Below, piece after piece: positions 2,642 to 11,498 of a DNA stretch of 12,395 nt. The first letter of the stretch is position 1; every line of letters starts with the position of its first letter. Under the pieces are notes generated by a model. It saw only the letters and a list, made by a program, of their open reading frames with translations. It did not search any database and was not told where the DNA came from. Made by a program: the position numbers and the translations under genes. The DNA comes from Promethearchaeota archaeon. GTDB taxonomy: Archaea > Asgardarchaeota > Thorarchaeia > Thorarchaeales > Thorarchaeaceae. Location of the stretch: positions 1-12,395 of the forward strand of contig JBHLPF010000034.1 in the NCBI GenBank assembly GCA_048939765.1. The letters run 5' to 3'.

Positions 2642-3556
2642 TTAGCCATTGTTCGCAATGCGTCTTGCTTGAAGCACCTGTATCAAAGCCACACAGAGTG
2701 CCATTAGGATTAGGCCAAACCAATCAAGAAGATCAGGCATTTCTCCTAGGAAGACGATGGACAGGATAACAATTTGGGGCAACATCGTGCTATTAATCAC
2801 GGTGATGTCCACAGCTCGAAGAGTTTCCATTGCTCTATTCCATATGGTGAACGCAAAAGCGGTATTCACAACGCTCAACCATAGAATGTACAGGAGCGCC
2901 AGGGGAGTTACGATTGTTATCCCCTCCAGAATCAGACCAGTGACTACCATCAGACACGCACCTATTGTCATACTAGTCCCAGTTATTACCAGAGGCGGTG
3001 CTGCCTGTTCCTTGTTGATTGACCTTCCCAGAATAGATGAGAACGCGTTCGCCAATACACCGATCAAGACCACAATTAGGCCAATGGTCTGTGAGAAGTC
3101 CAAATCCACTGGATAGAAGTATATCATAGCTCCTGCGACAACCAAGAACACCAATACTGTCTGAGTCCTAGTCGGTGTTTCTTTCAGCATCACAATACCC
3201 AGACCAAGCACAACAATCGGCGTCAGGTTGAGTAGCATCGATACTGGTATTGCATCCAGTAGATCAAGCCCAATGAACTGAGCTGCTTGAGTGACTGCCA
3301 CGAAGACGACGCCATAAAGAGCAATCCTCCACCACCATCGCCGGTCCTGCTGCTTGAGTGATAGGCGGTGCGCGGGATTTGACAGCATTAGAACAAGAAG
3401 AATCATCGCTGCAATGGCATAGCGGAGACCTGCGAATGTAATGGGAGGGATTCCCTCCCGCTCGAGACCGAATTTTATGATGACCCAAGAAGATGCCCAA
3501 AGCACCGTCACAAAGAGTGCTTCCACGACAGCTCTGTAGTGTTTCTTGGTTGACAT
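2642..3556 (-). CDS. DMT/EamA family transporter
   Basis: About 10 hydrophobic helices in two repeats; LWASSWVIIKFGL...PPITFAGLRY and FLGE motifs. Start at ATG 3556 (MSTKK) is preferred; the ORF is open to 3613. Confidence 0.9.
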   Translation of the reverse strand: MSTKKHYRAVVEALFVTVLWASSWVIIKFGLEREGIPPITFAGLRYAIAAMILLVLMLSNPAHRLSLKQQDRRWWWRIALYGVVFVAVTQAAQFIGLDLLDAIPVSMLLNLTPIVVLGLGIVMLKETPTRTQTVLVFLVVAGAMIYFYPVDLDFSQTIGLIVVLIGVLANAFSSILGRSINKEQAAPPLVITGTSMTIGACLMVVTGLILEGITIVTPLALLYILWLSVVNTAFAFTIWNRAMETLRAVDITVINSTMLPQIVILSIVFLGEMPDLLDWFGLILMALCVALIQVLQARRIANNG

Positions 3557-3577
3557 ATCTGCACTAAAAACATCAAG

Positions 3578-3623
3578 GTCAGTAGATGGCTCCATTACTT
3601 CGATTACACCCATGTCAGTAGAT
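3578..3623. repeat. 10-bp direct repeat GTCAGTAGAT x2 in the EamA/HTH_10 divergent region
   Basis: Exact copies at 3578-3587 and 3614-3623. Confidence 0.55.
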
Positions 3624-3671
3624 TCATTAGAAACGAATCAATATGATGCCGTCATAAGACGGGTGTATATA

Positions 3672-4316
3672 ATGGTCGTTCAGTGTACTATTGAGGTTGG
3701 CGCAGAGGATTACTATTCCTGTGATCTCACTCGTGAAATCCCGGTTCGTGTGACACTTGTAACCATAAATGGGGATACTGGGTTTGGGATAACTGAATCT
3801 TCAGTTGGTGATGAGGAAGCAATCAAGGACTACATCAAGGGACTTGAGTCTTCTCCAAGCATCAAGGAAGTGAGCATTCTCCACAGGTCTCAGGATGCGT
3901 ATTGGACCAGGGTAGTCCATAGGCTTAGCAAGGCGTCCATACATGAAACAATCCTTGATAGTGGATGCATGACCCGTCTTCCTATTGTTGTGGAACATGG
4001 ACTACAATATCACACCATTCTGGCACCATCCCAAGATACCCTGAGTGAGTTGATTCGATTGCTTCGAAAACGGTTTCCTCATGTCCGTATTAAACGATTG
4101 AGGTCTCAACCAATGTCTTCCTTTAGAATCGCCTTAACAAAGAAACAGAAAGAGGCATTTCTCCTTGCATTTCGGTCAGGCTACTATGAGATGCCTCGCA
4201 AATCGCGCATTGATCAGATGTGCAAGAAGCTCGGCATAAAGCGAGTGGCAATGCAAGAACGACTCCGACGAGCTGAGAGACGAATCATCGCTGAGTTTGT
4301 GGAGACACTACCCTAA
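3672..4316 (+). CDS. Bacterio-opsin-activator-type HTH_10 transcriptional regulator
   Basis: C-terminal [52 protein letters not shown] is the HTH_10 signature. Start is set at ATG 3672 (MVVQC); the longer ORF overlaps EamA. Confidence 0.88.
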
Positions 4317-6316
4317 TGCTCTATCAGTTTCTTGACATGTTTAATGATGTTTTCAACAGTGAATCCATATTTCTCGAATACGATTTCATTCGGAGCAGAA
4401 GCACCAAATGTTTCCACCGCCATTATCGCTCCCTTGTCACCGATCCAACGTTCCCAACCTTGCGACCTGCCAGCCTCTACCGCCAGACGCGCATACACTT
4501 CAGGCGGAAGAACTGAGTTGCGGTAATCTTGACCTTGTTGTTCAAAAAGCTCCCAGCTGGGGAATGAAATTAACCGGACATTGACACCCTCTTTGGATAA
4601 CTTCTCTCCTGCTTTGGTGATTAGGCTGACCTCTGAACCTGTAGCCATTAATATGGCGTCTGGCGGGGCGTCCCCAAGGTCTGCAAGGACATATGCTCCT
4701 CTTGCAAGTCCGCTCGCAGGACTGTATGTGTTGCGATCAAGAATTGGTATCTTTTGCCGAGTCAGCGCCATCAGCGTGGGTCCTCCTGAACGGTTTATGG
4801 CAATCTTCCAAGCTTCAACTACCTCATTTGCATCGCAGGGACGTAGAACAATGATGTCTGGTATGGCACGCAATGCGGCCAATTGCTCAATCGGTTGATG
4901 AGTTGGTCCATCTTCGCCTACCCCTATGCTATCATGAGTGAATACCCAGATGCTTCTGTGCTTCGAGAGGGCAGAAATTCGAATCGCAGGTCGCATGTAA
5001 TCTGAGAATATCAGAAATGTGGCACCGTAAGGAATGAATCCACCATGGGCTGCCATGCCGTTTACAACGGCGCCCATTGCGTGTTCGCGGACCCCGAAGA
5101 AGAAGTTCCGTCCCTCGGGGGATTCCTTCTGAAATGCTGGATGCCCCTTCATCCATGTCTTGTTTGAGCCAGTAAGGTCCGCAGAACCACCGAAAATCTC
5201 TGGAAGATGAGGAGCAAGTGCATTAATCACATCTCCTGAGGGATTCCTTGTTGCGACGCCAGTTTCATCAGCATCATAGTGTGGAAGGTCCTTGTCCCAG
5301 TCCTTGGGAAGTCTGCCTGACATTCGACGTTCAAACTCCCTGGCCAACTCCGTATGCTTCTTCCTGTAGTCTTCCATCTTGGCATCCCAAGTTCTTTCCA
5401 TTTCCTCTCCCCGTTTAATGGAATCTCGGAAGTGTTTCAAAACATCATCAGGAATCAAGAAACGCGGCTCTAAGGGCCACCCAAGGTTCTTTTTCGCTGC
5501 TTCCAGCTCTTCTTCACCTGGAGGCTCCCCATGTGCTTTCGCTGTGTCTTGCTTGTTTGGCATGCCAAAACCAATGTGAGTTCTAACCATGATTATTGAT
5601 GGTCGTTGATCTTCCTTCGCATTTGCAATTGCTTGGTCGATTGCAGCAACATCATTTCCGTCACCTACTGACTGAACATGCCATCCCAGTGACTCGAATC
5701 TGGCACCTCGATGCTCAGTGAAAGTCACGTCAGTACTGCCATCGATTGAGATGCGATTATCATCGTAAAGCAGAATCAGCTTGCCCAGTTGATGGTGTCC
5801 AGCCAATGAGGCAGCCTCATTGGAAATTCCCTCCATCAAATCCCCATCGGTAACTATCGCGTAGGTATAGTGATCGACGATATCATGTCCGGGTCTGTTG
5901 AACACCGCAGCCAGATGCTTCTCAGCAATAGCCATGCCAAGCGCATTGCCCATTCCCTGACCTAGAGGTCCAGTGGTGACTTCCACTCCAGGTGTGCAAT
6001 AGTTTTCAGGATGCCCAGGAGTTCGACAACCCCACTGTCGGAAGTTCTTGATGTCATCGATTGACAAATCATATCCTGTGAGATGAAGGAGTGCATATAG
6101 GAGCATAGAGCCATGTCCACCGGAAAGCACGAATCGGTCACGGTCGAGCCAATCTGGATTCTGTGGATTGAAACGCAGGTGTCTGGTCCAGAGTGTATAT
6201 GCCATGGCTGCTGCGCCCATAGGCATTCCTGGATGTCCTGAGTTTGCCTTCTGCACAGCATCGGCAGCCAAAAATCGAATAGTATTGATTGCTCGGTTTT
6301 GAAGGTCGTCCGACAT
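4313..6316 (-). CDS. tkt: Transketolase, full-length single chain
   Basis: [34 protein letters not shown], the ThDP motif TDGDLMEG...DDN, and [22 protein letters not shown] at 6316 has GGAGG 7 nt upstream. The stop overlaps the convergent HTH_10 stop. Confidence 0.97.
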
Positions 6317-6353
6317 TATATGGCCTCCCAACTGAAAGGAGTATACATCATTG

Positions 6354-6398
6354 ACGGTCCGCAAACCCTCCTGCTTTTGGGTATTGCGTCATGACCGC
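6354..6398 (-). other. Stem-loop with AUGA/GA core (K-turn or SECIS-like) between GNAT and tkt
   Basis: Minus strand reads GCGG-UC-AUGA-CGCAAUACCC-AAAAGCAGGA-GGGUUUGCG-GA-CCGU. Confidence 0.35.
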
Positions 6399-6566: not shown

Positions 6567-7136
6567 CTATCCCTCACCCACGGTTTTGCCGGGAGGATAC
6601 ATCTCTAGGAACTCATCTTTGAGGATGTCCATAGCCACAAGATCGTGGAACTGACCCTCGGTGAAGTCAGCTTGTCTGAAGGTGCCAATTCTCTTGAAAC
6701 CTGCCTTCTCGTAGGCCTTCTGTGCTCGTTCGTTAAATGAAACTGTGTACAGGTAAATGCTGTTGAGACCCAAGACTTGGAAGCCAATCCAGAGCATGAC
6801 TTTGGCGGCATCTGTTCCGTAGCCCTTCCCCCAATTATCAGGACTATGAATAGCAATTCCAAATTCGGCCCTTTGCGTCTGCTTGCTAATGTCAAATATG
6901 CCCGTCGTTCCCAGAAACTCACTGGTCTTCTTATCTTCGATGACAAGATTGAGCGCCCCGTCCTGCCAAGGCCTTGCTTTCGATGCTTTCTCCAACCACT
7001 CTTTCTCGGCATTTTGAGACATGGGAATTGCACCAGCCAGAAACCTTCGCATCTCAAAGTTGTTCCACCCCTTCATGATATTGTCTAGATCTGACATCTC
7101 CAAGGCGCGGAGTTTGACCTTTTCACCGTAGTACAT
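6567..7136 (-). CDS. GNAT acetyltransferase, RimJ/RimL-like
   Basis: VKLRALEMSD, AEFGIAI, the acetyl-CoA loop NWGKGYGTDA, and NERAQKAYEKAGFKRIG. Confidence 0.92.
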   Translation of the reverse strand: MYYGEKVKLRALEMSDLDNIMKGWNNFEMRRFLAGAIPMSQNAEKEWLEKASKARPWQDGALNLVIEDKKTSEFLGTTGIFDISKQTQRAEFGIAIHSPDNWGKGYGTDAAKVMLWIGFQVLGLNSIYLYTVSFNERAQKAYEKAGFKRIGTFRQADFTEGQFHDLVAMDILKDEFLEMYPPGKTVGEG

Positions 7137-8887: not shown

Positions 8888-9268
8888 TCAGAGCTTCAAC
8901 TCAGCTTCGCTCTTCCAAAGTCCATGAATATTACAGTATGAAGTAGCCATCAACGTGCCTGATTTGTTGGTCTTGAAGACGAACTTGGCAACTGGCTCGC
9001 TGTATATGCCGCTACTATCAGGTCCATCAGCAGATTCACCGTGGTGATCGAAAGTACAGTATCCAATCTCTACGGGAAACTTAGCTCCTTCTGGCCAGAG
9101 GAAGAGATCACACCATTTGATATGATGCGCAGTCGTGTTTGGATGTGGAATCTCCTTGCCAACAATCACTTTGACGTACGCCTTTCCATCTTCGACCTTC
9201 ACTATATCAATTGAAGGCACATGTTTCTCTTTCTTCCAGTCATCGGTCTGTATCCATTTCTTTGACAT
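8888..9268 (-). CDS. sor: Superoxide reductase (1Fe-SOR, neelaredoxin type)
   Basis: EKHVP, HPNTTAHHIKW and SYCNIHGLW iron ligands; no desulforedoxin domain. ATG at 9268 has GGAGG 7 nt upstream. Confidence 0.93.
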   Translation of the reverse strand: MSKKWIQTDDWKKEKHVPSIDIVKVEDGKAYVKVIVGKEIPHPNTTAHHIKWCDLFLWPEGAKFPVEIGYCTFDHHGESADGPDSSGIYSEPVAKFVFKTNKSGTLMATSYCNIHGLWKSEAELKL

Positions 9269-9350
9269 AGGCTTTCCTCCCTCAAAGGAGTAGGATAATA
9301 GGCTCATCGCTCTAATGCCATAAAACAGTTCTCCTAGGTACACAATCTAG

Positions 9351-10844
9351 CTAACGGTCCAATTTCCTAATTTGATTCAGAGTCCACTTTCCCCTTTGAG
9401 TCAGGGTATAATAGCTTCTATGACGATTTTCATATGTCTTCTCGACTCGCGAATTAATAATCAGTCCACTGCTAGTCAGCTCTGTAAGGTGCTGGTATAT
9501 ACTTGGGATCTTAATGTCCACTCCATATTCATCCGAAAGAACCCTCCAAATTCCATATCCATAAGACTCACTCTTAGAGAGTATCTGTAGAATGCGGATT
9601 TTGGTCTGGCCTAGCTTCGTTGTAACTCTACGACCCTCCACCCTACTGAGCAGCTGCTCAAGAGGCCCCTTCCCCTTGACAAAGGTCCTTGCAATCTCGG
9701 GGTACTTGAGCCCCATTCCAGTAATGACACATACCACAGAATCATCACGTCCTATCTTTCCTGAGTGAATGAGTTTCTGCAGAGCTGCTATAGTGGTAGC
9801 TGATGATGGCTCTGCGAAGACGCCTTCTCGTCTTGCGAGCTGCCTCACAGCTTCCAATATCTCTCTATCGGAAACAGAAATAGCGATTCCGCGTGACTCC
9901 TCAATTGCCATCAATGCTGTACGTCCACAGACTGGATTCCTTACGCATATGTCAAAAGCTACCGTAGACGTAGACGAAGGCGGAGTGATGCTTTTCACAC
10001 CGCCCTTAAACGCCTCAACAATTGGTGCACAACCGCTAGCCTGAGCCCCGACTATCTTAGTATGCGAAGCATCAATCAGTCCAATCTGCTCCAGCTCCCT
10101 TAGCCCCTTCCATATCATCGACACATGACCGCCATTTCCCATTGGGGCAATAATCCAATCTGGTGCATTCCAATCCAGCTGCTCACACGTTTCGTAGATC
10201 GTTGTCTTCTCTCCTTCCATGAAGTGTGGATTGGAGGATGTTATGAAGTGGCTTCTTCCACTCTCTTGACGTGCCATTGCCATGGCTTCTTCTTGATCTC
10301 TGACTATCTCAACATCTGCTGCATAGGCGAGAATCTGGTAGAACTTGCCAATATCCACATTGCCTTTCTGACCTATGAACACCTTACTCTCAAGGCCAGC
10401 CCGAGCTGCGTAGGCAACAAGAGACGCAGCAAGATTCCCAGTAGATCCACAACACACCGACCTGAATCCATATTCCCTCGCTGCAGACACCTCGACCGCT
10501 GTACCACGATCGATGAATGCTCCAGTTGGGTTTGTTGTTTCGTCTTTGAGGTAAAGGCTATGAGTTCCCACGTCCTTTGCGAGACCATCACACTTGTGTA
10601 AGTAAGTTCCACCCTCACCTAGCGATACCATGTTCGCTTCGTTTTGAATTGGCAGTAGTTCAAGATACTTCCAAATGCCCTGTCTTCTTCTTCCAAGACC
10701 CTTGGAAGTGATCTTACTCTTCGCTGTTTCGATGTCATAGACGACATTCAGAACCTGTCCGCAAACAGAACAAGAACTGACGTAGTTTTGCGTAATGAAC
10801 TCATGTCCGCAGTCAGTGCACTTGAATCCAGACTGAAGTGACAT
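9351..10844 (-). CDS. Threonine-synthase-like PLP fold II domain lacking the catalytic Lys, fused to a C-terminal PadR wHTH
   Basis: Zn ribbon CxxC...CxxC, SLGEGGT, NPTGAFIDRG (canonical NPTGSFKDRG), STGN, PMGNGG, EPSSA and TGMGLK, followed by SYGYGIW...SIYQHLTELTSSGLI...RSYYTLTQRG (PadR). Confidence 0.88.
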   Translation of the reverse strand: MSLQSGFKCTDCGHEFITQNYVSSCSVCGQVLNVVYDIETAKSKITSKGLGRRRQGIWKYLELLPIQNEANMVSLGEGGTYLHKCDGLAKDVGTHSLYLKDETTNPTGAFIDRGTAVEVSAAREYGFRSVCCGSTGNLAASLVAYAARAGLESKVFIGQKGNVDIGKFYQILAYAADVEIVRDQEEAMAMARQESGRSHFITSSNPHFMEGEKTTIYETCEQLDWNAPDWIIAPMGNGGHVSMIWKGLRELEQIGLIDASHTKIVGAQASGCAPIVEAFKGGVKSITPPSSTSTVAFDICVRNPVCGRTALMAIEESRGIAISVSDREILEAVRQLARREGVFAEPSSATTIAALQKLIHSGKIGRDDSVVCVITGMGLKYPEIARTFVKGKGPLEQLLSRVEGRRVTTKLGQTKIRILQILSKSESYGYGIWRVLSDEYGVDIKIPSIYQHLTELTSSGLIINSRVEKTYENRHRSYYTLTQRGKWTLNQIRKLDR

Positions 10845-10898
10845 CCTATATCATGCCTATATATAGGCTCAAAATTATATATCCTTCTCTCAGAGAAG
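10845..10898. promoter_or_regulatory. Divergent promoter with a central TATA element flanked by two perfect palindromes
   Basis: GCCTATATATAGGC (10855-10868), TTATATAT (10875-10882) and CTTCTCT-C-AGAGAAG (10884-10898). Confidence 0.65.
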
Positions 10899-10925: not shown

Positions 10926-11498
10926 ATGGAGCTCTTCAGACCCAAAATACAAAGTAACACAATGTTTGTCGCCTTATTGGCTATTCTAACAGCCCTGACC
11001 ACAATTGCTACAATAGTACTTGCCATTCCTATCCCGGCAAGTGATGGGTTTCTCAATTTTGGAGATGCACTAGTGATGCTAAGCGGTCTCTTACTTGGTC
11101 CTTTGGGCGGCTTTATCGCTGGGGGAGTCGGTTCAGCAATGGGTGATGTCATCTTGGGCTACGTCCATTTCGCTCCAATCACTTTAGTTGTAAAGGGCTG
11201 CGAAGGGTTGGTGATGGGACTTTTTTGTAGTCGAGCCAGAAGTGCCAGTCTATTGACGGTATGGGACGTGGTTGGACTTGCTGTATCCTCACTTGTCATG
11301 TTGACCGGATATTTCCTCGCAGAGATCCCTTTGTACGGATATGGAGCTGCACTAACTGAGCTGTTGACAGCAAACTGGCTTCAAGTGGCAGTTGGTTCAA
11401 TCGTCACTGTCATTGTGGGACCTGTGGCAAGGCGCTTTCTGCAGGACACACTGTATCCATTCGAAAATGACAATTTGGTGGATATGCAGAACGAGTGA
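10926..11498 (+). CDS. ECF transporter S (substrate-binding) component
   Basis: IPIPASDGFLNFGDALVMLSGLLLGPLGGFIAGGVGSAMGDVILGYVHFAPITLVVKGCEG matches the S-component pattern; about 6 TM helices. Confidence 0.88.
   Translation: MELFRPKIQSNTMFVALLAILTALTTIATIVLAIPIPASDGFLNFGDALVMLSGLLLGPLGGFIAGGVGSAMGDVILGYVHFAPITLVVKGCEGLVMGLFCSRARSASLLTVWDVVGLAVSSLVMLTGYFLAEIPLYGYGAALTELLTANWLQVAVGSIVTVIVGPVARRFLQDTLYPFENDNLVDMQNE

Follow-up and report, generated by a model that had tools for sequence, protein, structure and literature searches.

The gene described here lies in a stretch of 12,395 nucleotides (the window) at the start of contig JBHLPF010000034.1 from a Promethearchaeota archaeon of the Thorarchaeaceae (GenBank assembly GCA_048939765.1). 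At positions 9351 to 10844 of the minus strand the window encodes a protein of 497 amino acids, in which a threonine synthase (ThrC) fold is fused to a PadR-type winged helix-turn-helix (wHTH) domain and isoleucine stands in place of the lysine that forms the Schiff base with pyridoxal 5'-phosphate (PLP). We propose that this fusion protein is a transcription factor responsive to vitamin B6. We consider it likely that it senses B6 and regulates both its own gene and the divergent gene of an energy-coupling factor (ECF) transporter S-component, binding an inverted repeat as a dimer formed through its ThrC domain. We infer the identity of the ligand, the binding to DNA and the sign of regulation from comparative genomics and structural models. 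With less assurance, we lean towards a wider view: lysine-less fusion proteins form an ancient Asgard/TACK family of single origin, the archaeal regulator of B6 uptake, of pdxST and, in some genomes, of a DUF89 phosphatase, in which covalent cofactor binding was turned into reversible sensing.

A threonine synthase fold fused to a PadR domain

The open reading frame runs without interruption, and Pfam and an AlphaFold model delimit the parts of its product. At the N-terminus is a zinc-ribbon-like motif of four cysteines (C9, C12, C25, C28; positions 10761 to 10820, minus strand), which are near-invariant in the family alignment; an N-terminal four-cysteine motif is found also in L003, a canonical lysine-bearing paralogue of the same genome. 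The PALP domain of fold-type II PLP-dependent enzymes follows (residues 73-376; 9717 to 10628, minus strand; PF00291, E 4.7e-65) and is the proposed sensor. Behind a linker that is disordered in the model (residues 404-409) comes the C-terminal PadR-type wHTH (residues 418-490; 9375 to 9593, minus strand; PF03551, E 1.7e-11, 44.4 bits at a cut-off of 27), within the stretch from roughly 9351 to 9615 to which a preliminary description of this DNA had assigned it. No aminotransferase or GntR match is among the listed Pfam domain matches. Specific models for ThrC in NCBIfam score above their cut-offs (TIGR00260, 206 bits against 167; PRK08197, 322.7 against 303), and the equivalog PRK05638, named 'threonine synthase' (442 positions), aligns to residues 8-491 and thereby includes the PadR domain.

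Residue 111 is encoded by the codon ATC (10514 to 10512, minus strand) and gives the motif NPTGAF-I-DRG, which the preliminary description had read as an exchange of the catalytic lysine for isoleucine. Codon and alignment confirm this: in HMMER alignments with the solved ThrCs 2zsj and 2d1f, I111 stands opposite the lysine of SFKDRG, which is K69 of Mycobacterium tuberculosis ThrC 2d1f as counted from the alignment. ATC is two substitutions away from either AAA or AAG. The closest homologues were taken as the best 120 matches in a collection of 5.8 billion proteins, and all 120, drawn from thor-, loki-, hod-, odin- and sif-archaeal bins, join PALP to PadR. Counting the query together with these homologues, position 111 is isoleucine in 100 proteins, leucine in 17, unreadable by motif search in four and lysine in none. 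Because the lysine is absent from all of the closest homologues whose motif could be read, its loss is due neither to chance nor to a sequencing error, and the earlier judgement that a single-base error is unlikely stands.

A wider survey by exhaustive HMMER search over the representatives of 50%-identity clusters gave about 67 PadR-fused representatives, which carry I, L, V, M, T, R, N, A or F at the lysine position; one has K. All 57 unfused representatives whose motif could be read have K. We also assembled a set of genomic loci with one genome per species, comprising 47 lysine-less loci (the window and 46 others) and 39 lysine-bearing ones. Every lysine-less locus is a PadR fusion (47/47) and every lysine-bearing locus lacks PadR (39/39); the fused loci have I, L, M, V, T, N or R at the position in question, and K is present in every unfused locus. 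Tabulated in this way over homologues of the same architecture, as the preliminary description had envisaged, the residue marks the loss of the lysine, at the level of sequence, as a family trait bound to the PadR fusion. The only fused representative that keeps the lysine, P0200 (NPTSSFKDR; L105:407-1819), lies on a metagenomic contig of 1.9 kb and could be either an intermediate or a revertant.

The fused form was found in Asgard archaea, Bathyarchaeia, Nitrososphaerota, Aigarchaeota, Methanomethylicota, Thermoproteota and one Methanomicrobia bin. Identity is 51-91% across Asgard classes and 33-50% in the other phyla. From the enzyme domain with the lysine column removed we computed a quick maximum-likelihood tree, which is unrooted and contains rows picked by similarity to the query. 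In this tree lysine-less and lysine-bearing rows separate at one branch (Shimodaira-Hasegawa-like approximate likelihood ratio test 98, one change). This split is compatible with a single origin of the lysine-less fused family.

Several motifs of the cofactor pocket are kept. STGN (134-137), PMGNGG (234-239), EPSSA (345-349) and TGMGLK (375-380) are all present, as had been reported together with the uninterrupted reading frame. Across the family F110, D112, R113, G136, N137, the Gly-rich loop 235-239, E345-P346 and T375-G376 are invariant or nearly so; the same holds for K100, K213 and K380, which are conserved in lysine-bearing ThrCs as well. We take these conserved residues to include the fold-type II elements that hold the phosphate, the ring and N1 of PLP. 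The substrate side of the pocket is changed. The query has TSSNPHF aligned with NSVNPYR of the solved ThrCs, and in fused proteins position 208, the Arg of NSxNPxR, is occupied by F, L, I or V; it is R in most bacterial ThrCs and Q or T in some lysine-bearing archaeal ones. From structures of Thermus thermophilus ThrC, this Arg presumably contacts the substrate phosphate of O-phosphohomoserine. Family members also differ in the first two residues of the STGN loop. Since the PLP motifs are conserved and both the Arg and the start of STGN are changed, the cofactor site looks preserved and the O-phosphohomoserine site does not. Two defining features of a ThrC, the lysine and the phosphate-site Arg, are thus absent from the aligned sequence, though the NCBIfam models score the protein as ThrC. 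We predict that the product is a transcription factor without threonine synthase function.

The lysines of the fused group were also searched for a replacement. K167 is the only one enriched there, being found in 100% of fused proteins versus 33% of unfused ones. It was rejected as a new active-site lysine because it is a lysine in the solved ThrCs 2zsj and 2d1f too and because residues next to it are part of the interface in the dimer model. No substitute catalytic lysine is apparent from sequences and model, and none specific to the family offers itself as the substitute that the preliminary description, provided the protein were active, would have taken as a refutation. The genome from which the window derives (3.37 Mb in 108 contigs, 88.5% complete) holds two lysine-bearing ThrC paralogues, L003 (NPTGSFKDRG, 485 bits against PRK08197) and L002 (322 bits); a separate canonical thrC is therefore at hand, a point the preliminary description had left for checking.

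The AlphaFold model of the fusion protein, built from an alignment of 41 sequences, has a predicted local distance difference test score (pLDDT) of 90.9 and a predicted template modelling score of 0.79. Its best fold matches in the PDB are ThrCs, the first of them 2zsj (Foldseek; template modelling score 0.87 by target, root-mean-square deviation 2.1 Å, 340 columns), and sequence identity to solved ThrCs is 36-40%. The PadR part is modelled as helices 413-424, 429-440 and 446-458, a wing at 462-481 and a last helix at 483-496, so that a single short helix lies beyond the beta wing. Modelled in two copies, the protein reaches an interface score (ipSAE) of 0.83, the best of three controls 0.00; of 30 proteins whose solved structure is a pair of one chain, 20 attain the mark applied to this score, and of 23 with a solved single-chain structure, 1 does. 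Contacts agree between runs to at least 65%, and the pLDDT of the partner is at least 85. The modelled contacts fall in residues 52-180 and 333-403, that is, in the ThrC-like domain. This result may reflect likeness to solved ThrC dimers and is then not independent evidence. The modelled dimer fits a palindromic operator and a PadR domain that has no usual C-terminal dimerisation helices.

Gene neighbourhoods that point to vitamin B6, and a conserved DNA element

Divergently from the regulator gene and 81 bp away lies the gene of an ECF transporter S-component of the PdxU/HmpT family (PF07155, COG4720) at positions 10926 to 11498 of the plus strand, the proposed regulated importer of a B6 vitamer. 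It matches PF07155 with 115.9 bits (E 2.5e-33, cut-off 26.7). Its only sequence match in the PDB is 4hzu_S, HmpT/PdxU2 of Lactobacillus brevis (E 1.1e-15, residues 17-169). HmpT has been shown to bind pyridoxamine (PMC4860826). PdxU and PdxU2/HmpT, the two named prokaryotic S-components for B6, both belong to PF07155/COG4720 (PMC9997740). The divergent S-component gene is the sole PF07155 gene of the window genome, and EcfT-type genes are present elsewhere in it.

Around the loci we searched within 3 kb of the regulator with a hidden Markov model built from five Asgard S-components. An S-component is found at about 30 of the 47 lysine-less loci, nearly always immediately upstream and divergent, in at least five archaeal phyla (Asgard archaea, Bathyarchaeia, Nitrososphaerota, Aigarchaeota and Crenarchaeota). 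The same model found none within 3 kb of the 39 lysine-bearing ThrC genes. Two loci of Bathyarchaeota without an S-component (L033, L036) have the regulator divergent from pdxS-pdxT (PF01680, E ~1e-96; PF01174, E 2.8e-52). Among ten pdxS-bearing Asgard genomes, four have the lysine-less ThrC-PadR gene adjoining pdxS-pdxT, three times divergent and once co-directional, which brings the loci with this adjacency to six. PdxS was detected in 46 of 301 Asgard genomes. Within the window's family 76 genomes were searched, many of them more than 95% complete, and it was found in none. PdxS, PdxT and PdxJ were not found in the window genome at its completeness of 88.5%, in a genome of 3.2 Mb that is a single long contig (and holds L008) or in a Loki bin of 4.3 Mb. 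Related genomes are not independent, and the counts of neighbourhoods and of PdxS carry no statistic. This gene context, on which the preliminary description had not drawn, points specifically to vitamin B6 and, together with the sequence checks it had proposed, supports its inference of a repurposed, B6-binding regulator.

Between the regulator and S-component genes lies a candidate operator, TATATAA-N7-CCTATATATAGG, at positions 10856 to 10881 as read on the minus strand. It contains an imperfect inverted repeat of 22 bp, TATATAAT-N6-CCTATATA, and the 12-bp palindrome CCTATATATAGG. Its end lies 12 nt ahead of the ATG of the regulator, its start about 45 nt ahead of the ATG of the S-component, and it overlaps a TATA-like sequence. 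From this position, with the TATA overlap and the 12 nt to the start codon, we suppose a placement typical of archaeal repressors. The element recurs with at most two mismatches in 26 of 29 S-component-linked loci from several phyla, the remainder of the spacer being unalignable. Hod/Hermod loci have a perfect 22-bp palindrome, TATATAAG-N6-CTTATATA; such a perfect palindrome is found in L010, L111 and L115. Two pdxS-linked Asgard loci have a counterpart element, TATACAAG-N6-CTTGTATA. Given the palindrome in Hod/Hermod loci and the counterpart in pdxS-linked ones, the core of the element resembles an inverted repeat that a dimer would bind.

In the 3.37 Mb of the window genome the exact element occurs once. 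Sites with four mismatches are the next best and were rejected as further operators: there are eight of them versus five for the reversed control, which is noise. Since such sites are no commoner than in the control, the regulon of the window genome appears to be the single divergon. A scan of Asgard genomes with at most one mismatch gave 48 sites in 44 of 301 genomes, usually one per genome, and one match for the reversed control. None of the 46 PdxS-encoding genomes contains the exact element.

Additional copies of the element were seen in some genomes. Two other Asgard genomes have another copy immediately upstream of a gene for a DUF89/ARMT1-like phosphatase (PF01937; E 1.5e-51 and 4.6e-50), one in L101 (element 105-130, gene 140-1072) and one in L103 (element 3070-3095, gene 3126-4034). 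This DUF89 'damage-control phosphatase' is a candidate for an extra member of the regulon, perhaps a phosphatase of B6 phosphates. Three copies are present in one genome of the window's genus, two of them at regulator/S-component pairs on different contigs and the third (L099:10936-10961) between the genes of an HTH_10 regulator and a GNAT acetyltransferase. Certain Nitrososphaerales loci have the element together with another divergent gene (L046:1362-3101, minus strand; L045:2008-2952, minus strand), coding for a transporter of the amino-acid-permease family (PF13520) or for a protein of 315 amino acids without a Pfam match; these are possible alternative B6 carriers. A sub-branch with Arg at position 111 (L041, L044, L048, L079) has no TATATA element and has a gene related to AIR synthase (PF00586/PF02769) nearby, which in L044 and L048 is divergent from the regulator. 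Members of this sub-branch may sense something else or have another role, and they fall outside the B6 reading.

Other neighbours of the regulator gene are less regular. In the window a gene for desulfoferrodoxin (superoxide reductase; 8888 to 9343, minus strand; PF01880, E 1.7e-26) begins 7 bp past the stop codon of the regulator on the same strand, and the two are possibly co-transcribed. Desulfoferrodoxin follows the regulator also in L009 (Loki) and L013 (Sif), not in L008 and L010. Further away the window encodes an HTH_10/BAT-type regulator (3546 to 4316, plus strand), a full-length transketolase (4313 to 6364, minus strand) and a GNAT acetyltransferase (6567 to 7136, minus strand). Transketolase and GNAT genes are again near the regulator in the Sif locus L013, and GNAT genes flank it in several Asgard loci.

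Proposed mechanism and alternative readings

According to our model, a ThrC paralogue would have lost the Schiff-base lysine and gained a PadR domain. The PLP pocket would have been retained to bind a B6 vitamer, most likely PLP, non-covalently; with the lysine lost, such binding would be reversible only. Dimerisation through the ThrC-like domain would place the two C-terminal winged helices of PadR on the inverted repeat. When B6 is plentiful, the liganded dimer would probably occupy its site overlapping the TATA-like elements and switch off transcription of the S-component and of the regulator itself; scarcity of B6 would lift the repression of uptake. Where PLP is made by the cell, pdxST would be repressed in place of uptake once B6 suffices, again together with the regulator's own gene.

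A number of observations weigh against this model. About one third of the lysine-less loci show neither an S-component nor pdxST within their flank. We found no convincing pyridoxal kinase in the window genome, the best PF08543 matches reaching 31.6 and 23.8 bits, and salvage of B6 needs one; this genome is only 88.5% complete. PF07155 bears the Pfam name 'ECF-type riboflavin transporter, S component', and substrates have been verified for few of its members. E41 and H84 of HmpT, whose roles have been described (PMC4860826), align with D and K in the S-component of the window, which leaves the transported vitamer uncertain. Finally, the TATATA cores of the candidate operator could in part simply be the TATA boxes expected of any two divergent archaeal promoters.

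Four other explanations were weighed. The best of them, which we nevertheless hold to be unlikely, is that the sensor reports amino-acid status. Its ligand would be an amino acid such as threonine, homoserine or serine, or a phospho-amino acid such as O-phosphohomoserine, perhaps joined to non-covalent PLP as an adduct; a phospho-amino acid was the alternative ligand offered by the preliminary description. The domain does descend from ThrC, G136-N137 is conserved in the loop that holds the substrate carboxylate in fold-type II enzymes, and the aldehyde of PLP, once free of the lysine, could presumably form an aldimine with an amino acid. However, the first two positions of STGN are variable, and a phospho-amino acid becomes less likely as ligand because the counterpart of the NSxNPxR Arg is hydrophobic. 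The conserved neighbours, moreover, are an importer of the B6 type and pdxST and include no genes of the threonine pathway.

Somewhat more improbable is the explanation that the regulator governs uptake of another micronutrient, riboflavin or the thiamine precursor hydroxymethylpyrimidine (HMP), with an S-component that is no B6 carrier and a PLP fold that senses something unrelated. The Pfam name of PF07155 would agree with riboflavin, and the substrate-contact residues are unlike those of HmpT, which was itself initially predicted to be a carrier of HMP (PMC4860826). Three findings argue for B6 instead: the regulator family adjoins pdxS-pdxT in six loci, the pairing with the S-component is seen in genomes where PLP synthase was not found, and the sensor retains the motifs of the PLP pocket.

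That the protein is still an enzyme, bifunctional in the manner of RbkR, with free PLP or another residue standing in for Lys111 and with DNA binding besides, we regard as very unlikely. The score above the PRK08197 cut-off and the invariance of K167 in the fused group, which contrasts with its occurrence in a third of unfused proteins, would speak for residual catalysis. Against this, hydrophobic residues occupy the lysine position clade-wide, K167 is shared with the solved ThrCs and has its neighbours in the modelled interface, and two lysine-bearing ThrC paralogues already exist in the genome. Gene decay or an error of assembly or sequencing, for which nothing more than the missing catalytic residue speaks, is as good as ruled out by family-wide conservation, that is, by the intact frame of 497 amino acids and by motifs and synteny kept at the identities between classes and phyla given above.

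If regulation by B6 through the fusion protein proves true, B6 homeostasis in the Asgard and TACK archaea would gain a regulator, an operator and a set of targets that can be tested. Transport of B6 is poorly charted in prokaryotes generally (PMC9997740). Auxotrophy for B6 would be flagged in the window's Asgard family, where PdxS was not found, and this would be useful for cultivation. Many database entries named 'threonine synthase' would be transcription factors, and a systematic mis-annotation could be corrected; since PRK05638 spans the PadR part and PRK08197 scores above its cut-off, annotation pipelines will keep the old name. The family would furthermore be a clear case of a pseudoenzyme acting as a ligand sensor, in which loss of the covalent anchor may enable reversible sensing, and it would offer a ready PLP-responsive switch for synthetic biology.

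Relation to known regulators and enzymes

In the literature we found no description of the ThrC-PadR family; coverage was incomplete and such a paper may exist. Nor did we find a B6-responsive regulator described for Archaea. In Bacteria, regulators of the MocR subfamily (PdxR, GabR, TauR) are PLP-dependent and combine a PLP-enzyme fold as sensor with a winged helix; PdxR controls pdxST and has B6 transporters among its regulon members, and regulators of the subfamily bind repeats in divergent promoter regions (PMC5320631). Like them, the fusion protein appears to reuse a PLP-enzyme fold as the sensor of a transcription factor, with a winged helix fused to it. In the MocR design the wHTH is of the GntR type and N-terminal, and the aminotransferase domain, which is of fold-type I, retains the lysine and binds PLP covalently, whereas the archaeal family has a C-terminal PadR wHTH and a fold-type II ThrC domain without the lysine. 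The two are analogues, not homologues. In function, bacterial MocR-type regulators such as PdxR would be the closest analogues.

Within Archaea, Rodionov and co-workers reportedly described ThiR and RbkR, in which the fold of an enzyme of a cofactor pathway is joined to a DNA-binding domain and which control genes for synthesis or uptake of that cofactor, often adjacent ones. The parent enzyme of ThiR is the thiamine-phosphate synthase ThiN, that of RbkR is riboflavin kinase. ThrC-PadR proteins would share this logic of design and differ in parent enzyme, DNA-binding domain and vitamin.

With ThrC itself (EC 4.2.3.1; 2zsj, 2d1f, 1uim, 6cgq) the fusion protein shares the fold, the N-terminal cysteine motif, the loop for the PLP phosphate and, as modelled here, a dimer through the same domain. 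Unlike ThrC, it has no Schiff-base lysine, a hydrophobic residue in place of the NSxNPxR Arg, an appended PadR domain and a context of B6 rather than threonine genes. Classical PadR proteins (PadR, LmrR) are small, carry the wHTH at the N-terminus and dimerise via C-terminal helices. The fusion protein has in common with them a PF03551 wHTH above the cut-off and a candidate operator that is an inverted repeat of the dimer type; its wHTH, in contrast, is C-terminal, and its dimer is modelled through the ThrC-like domain. It is thus an atypical member of the PadR family.

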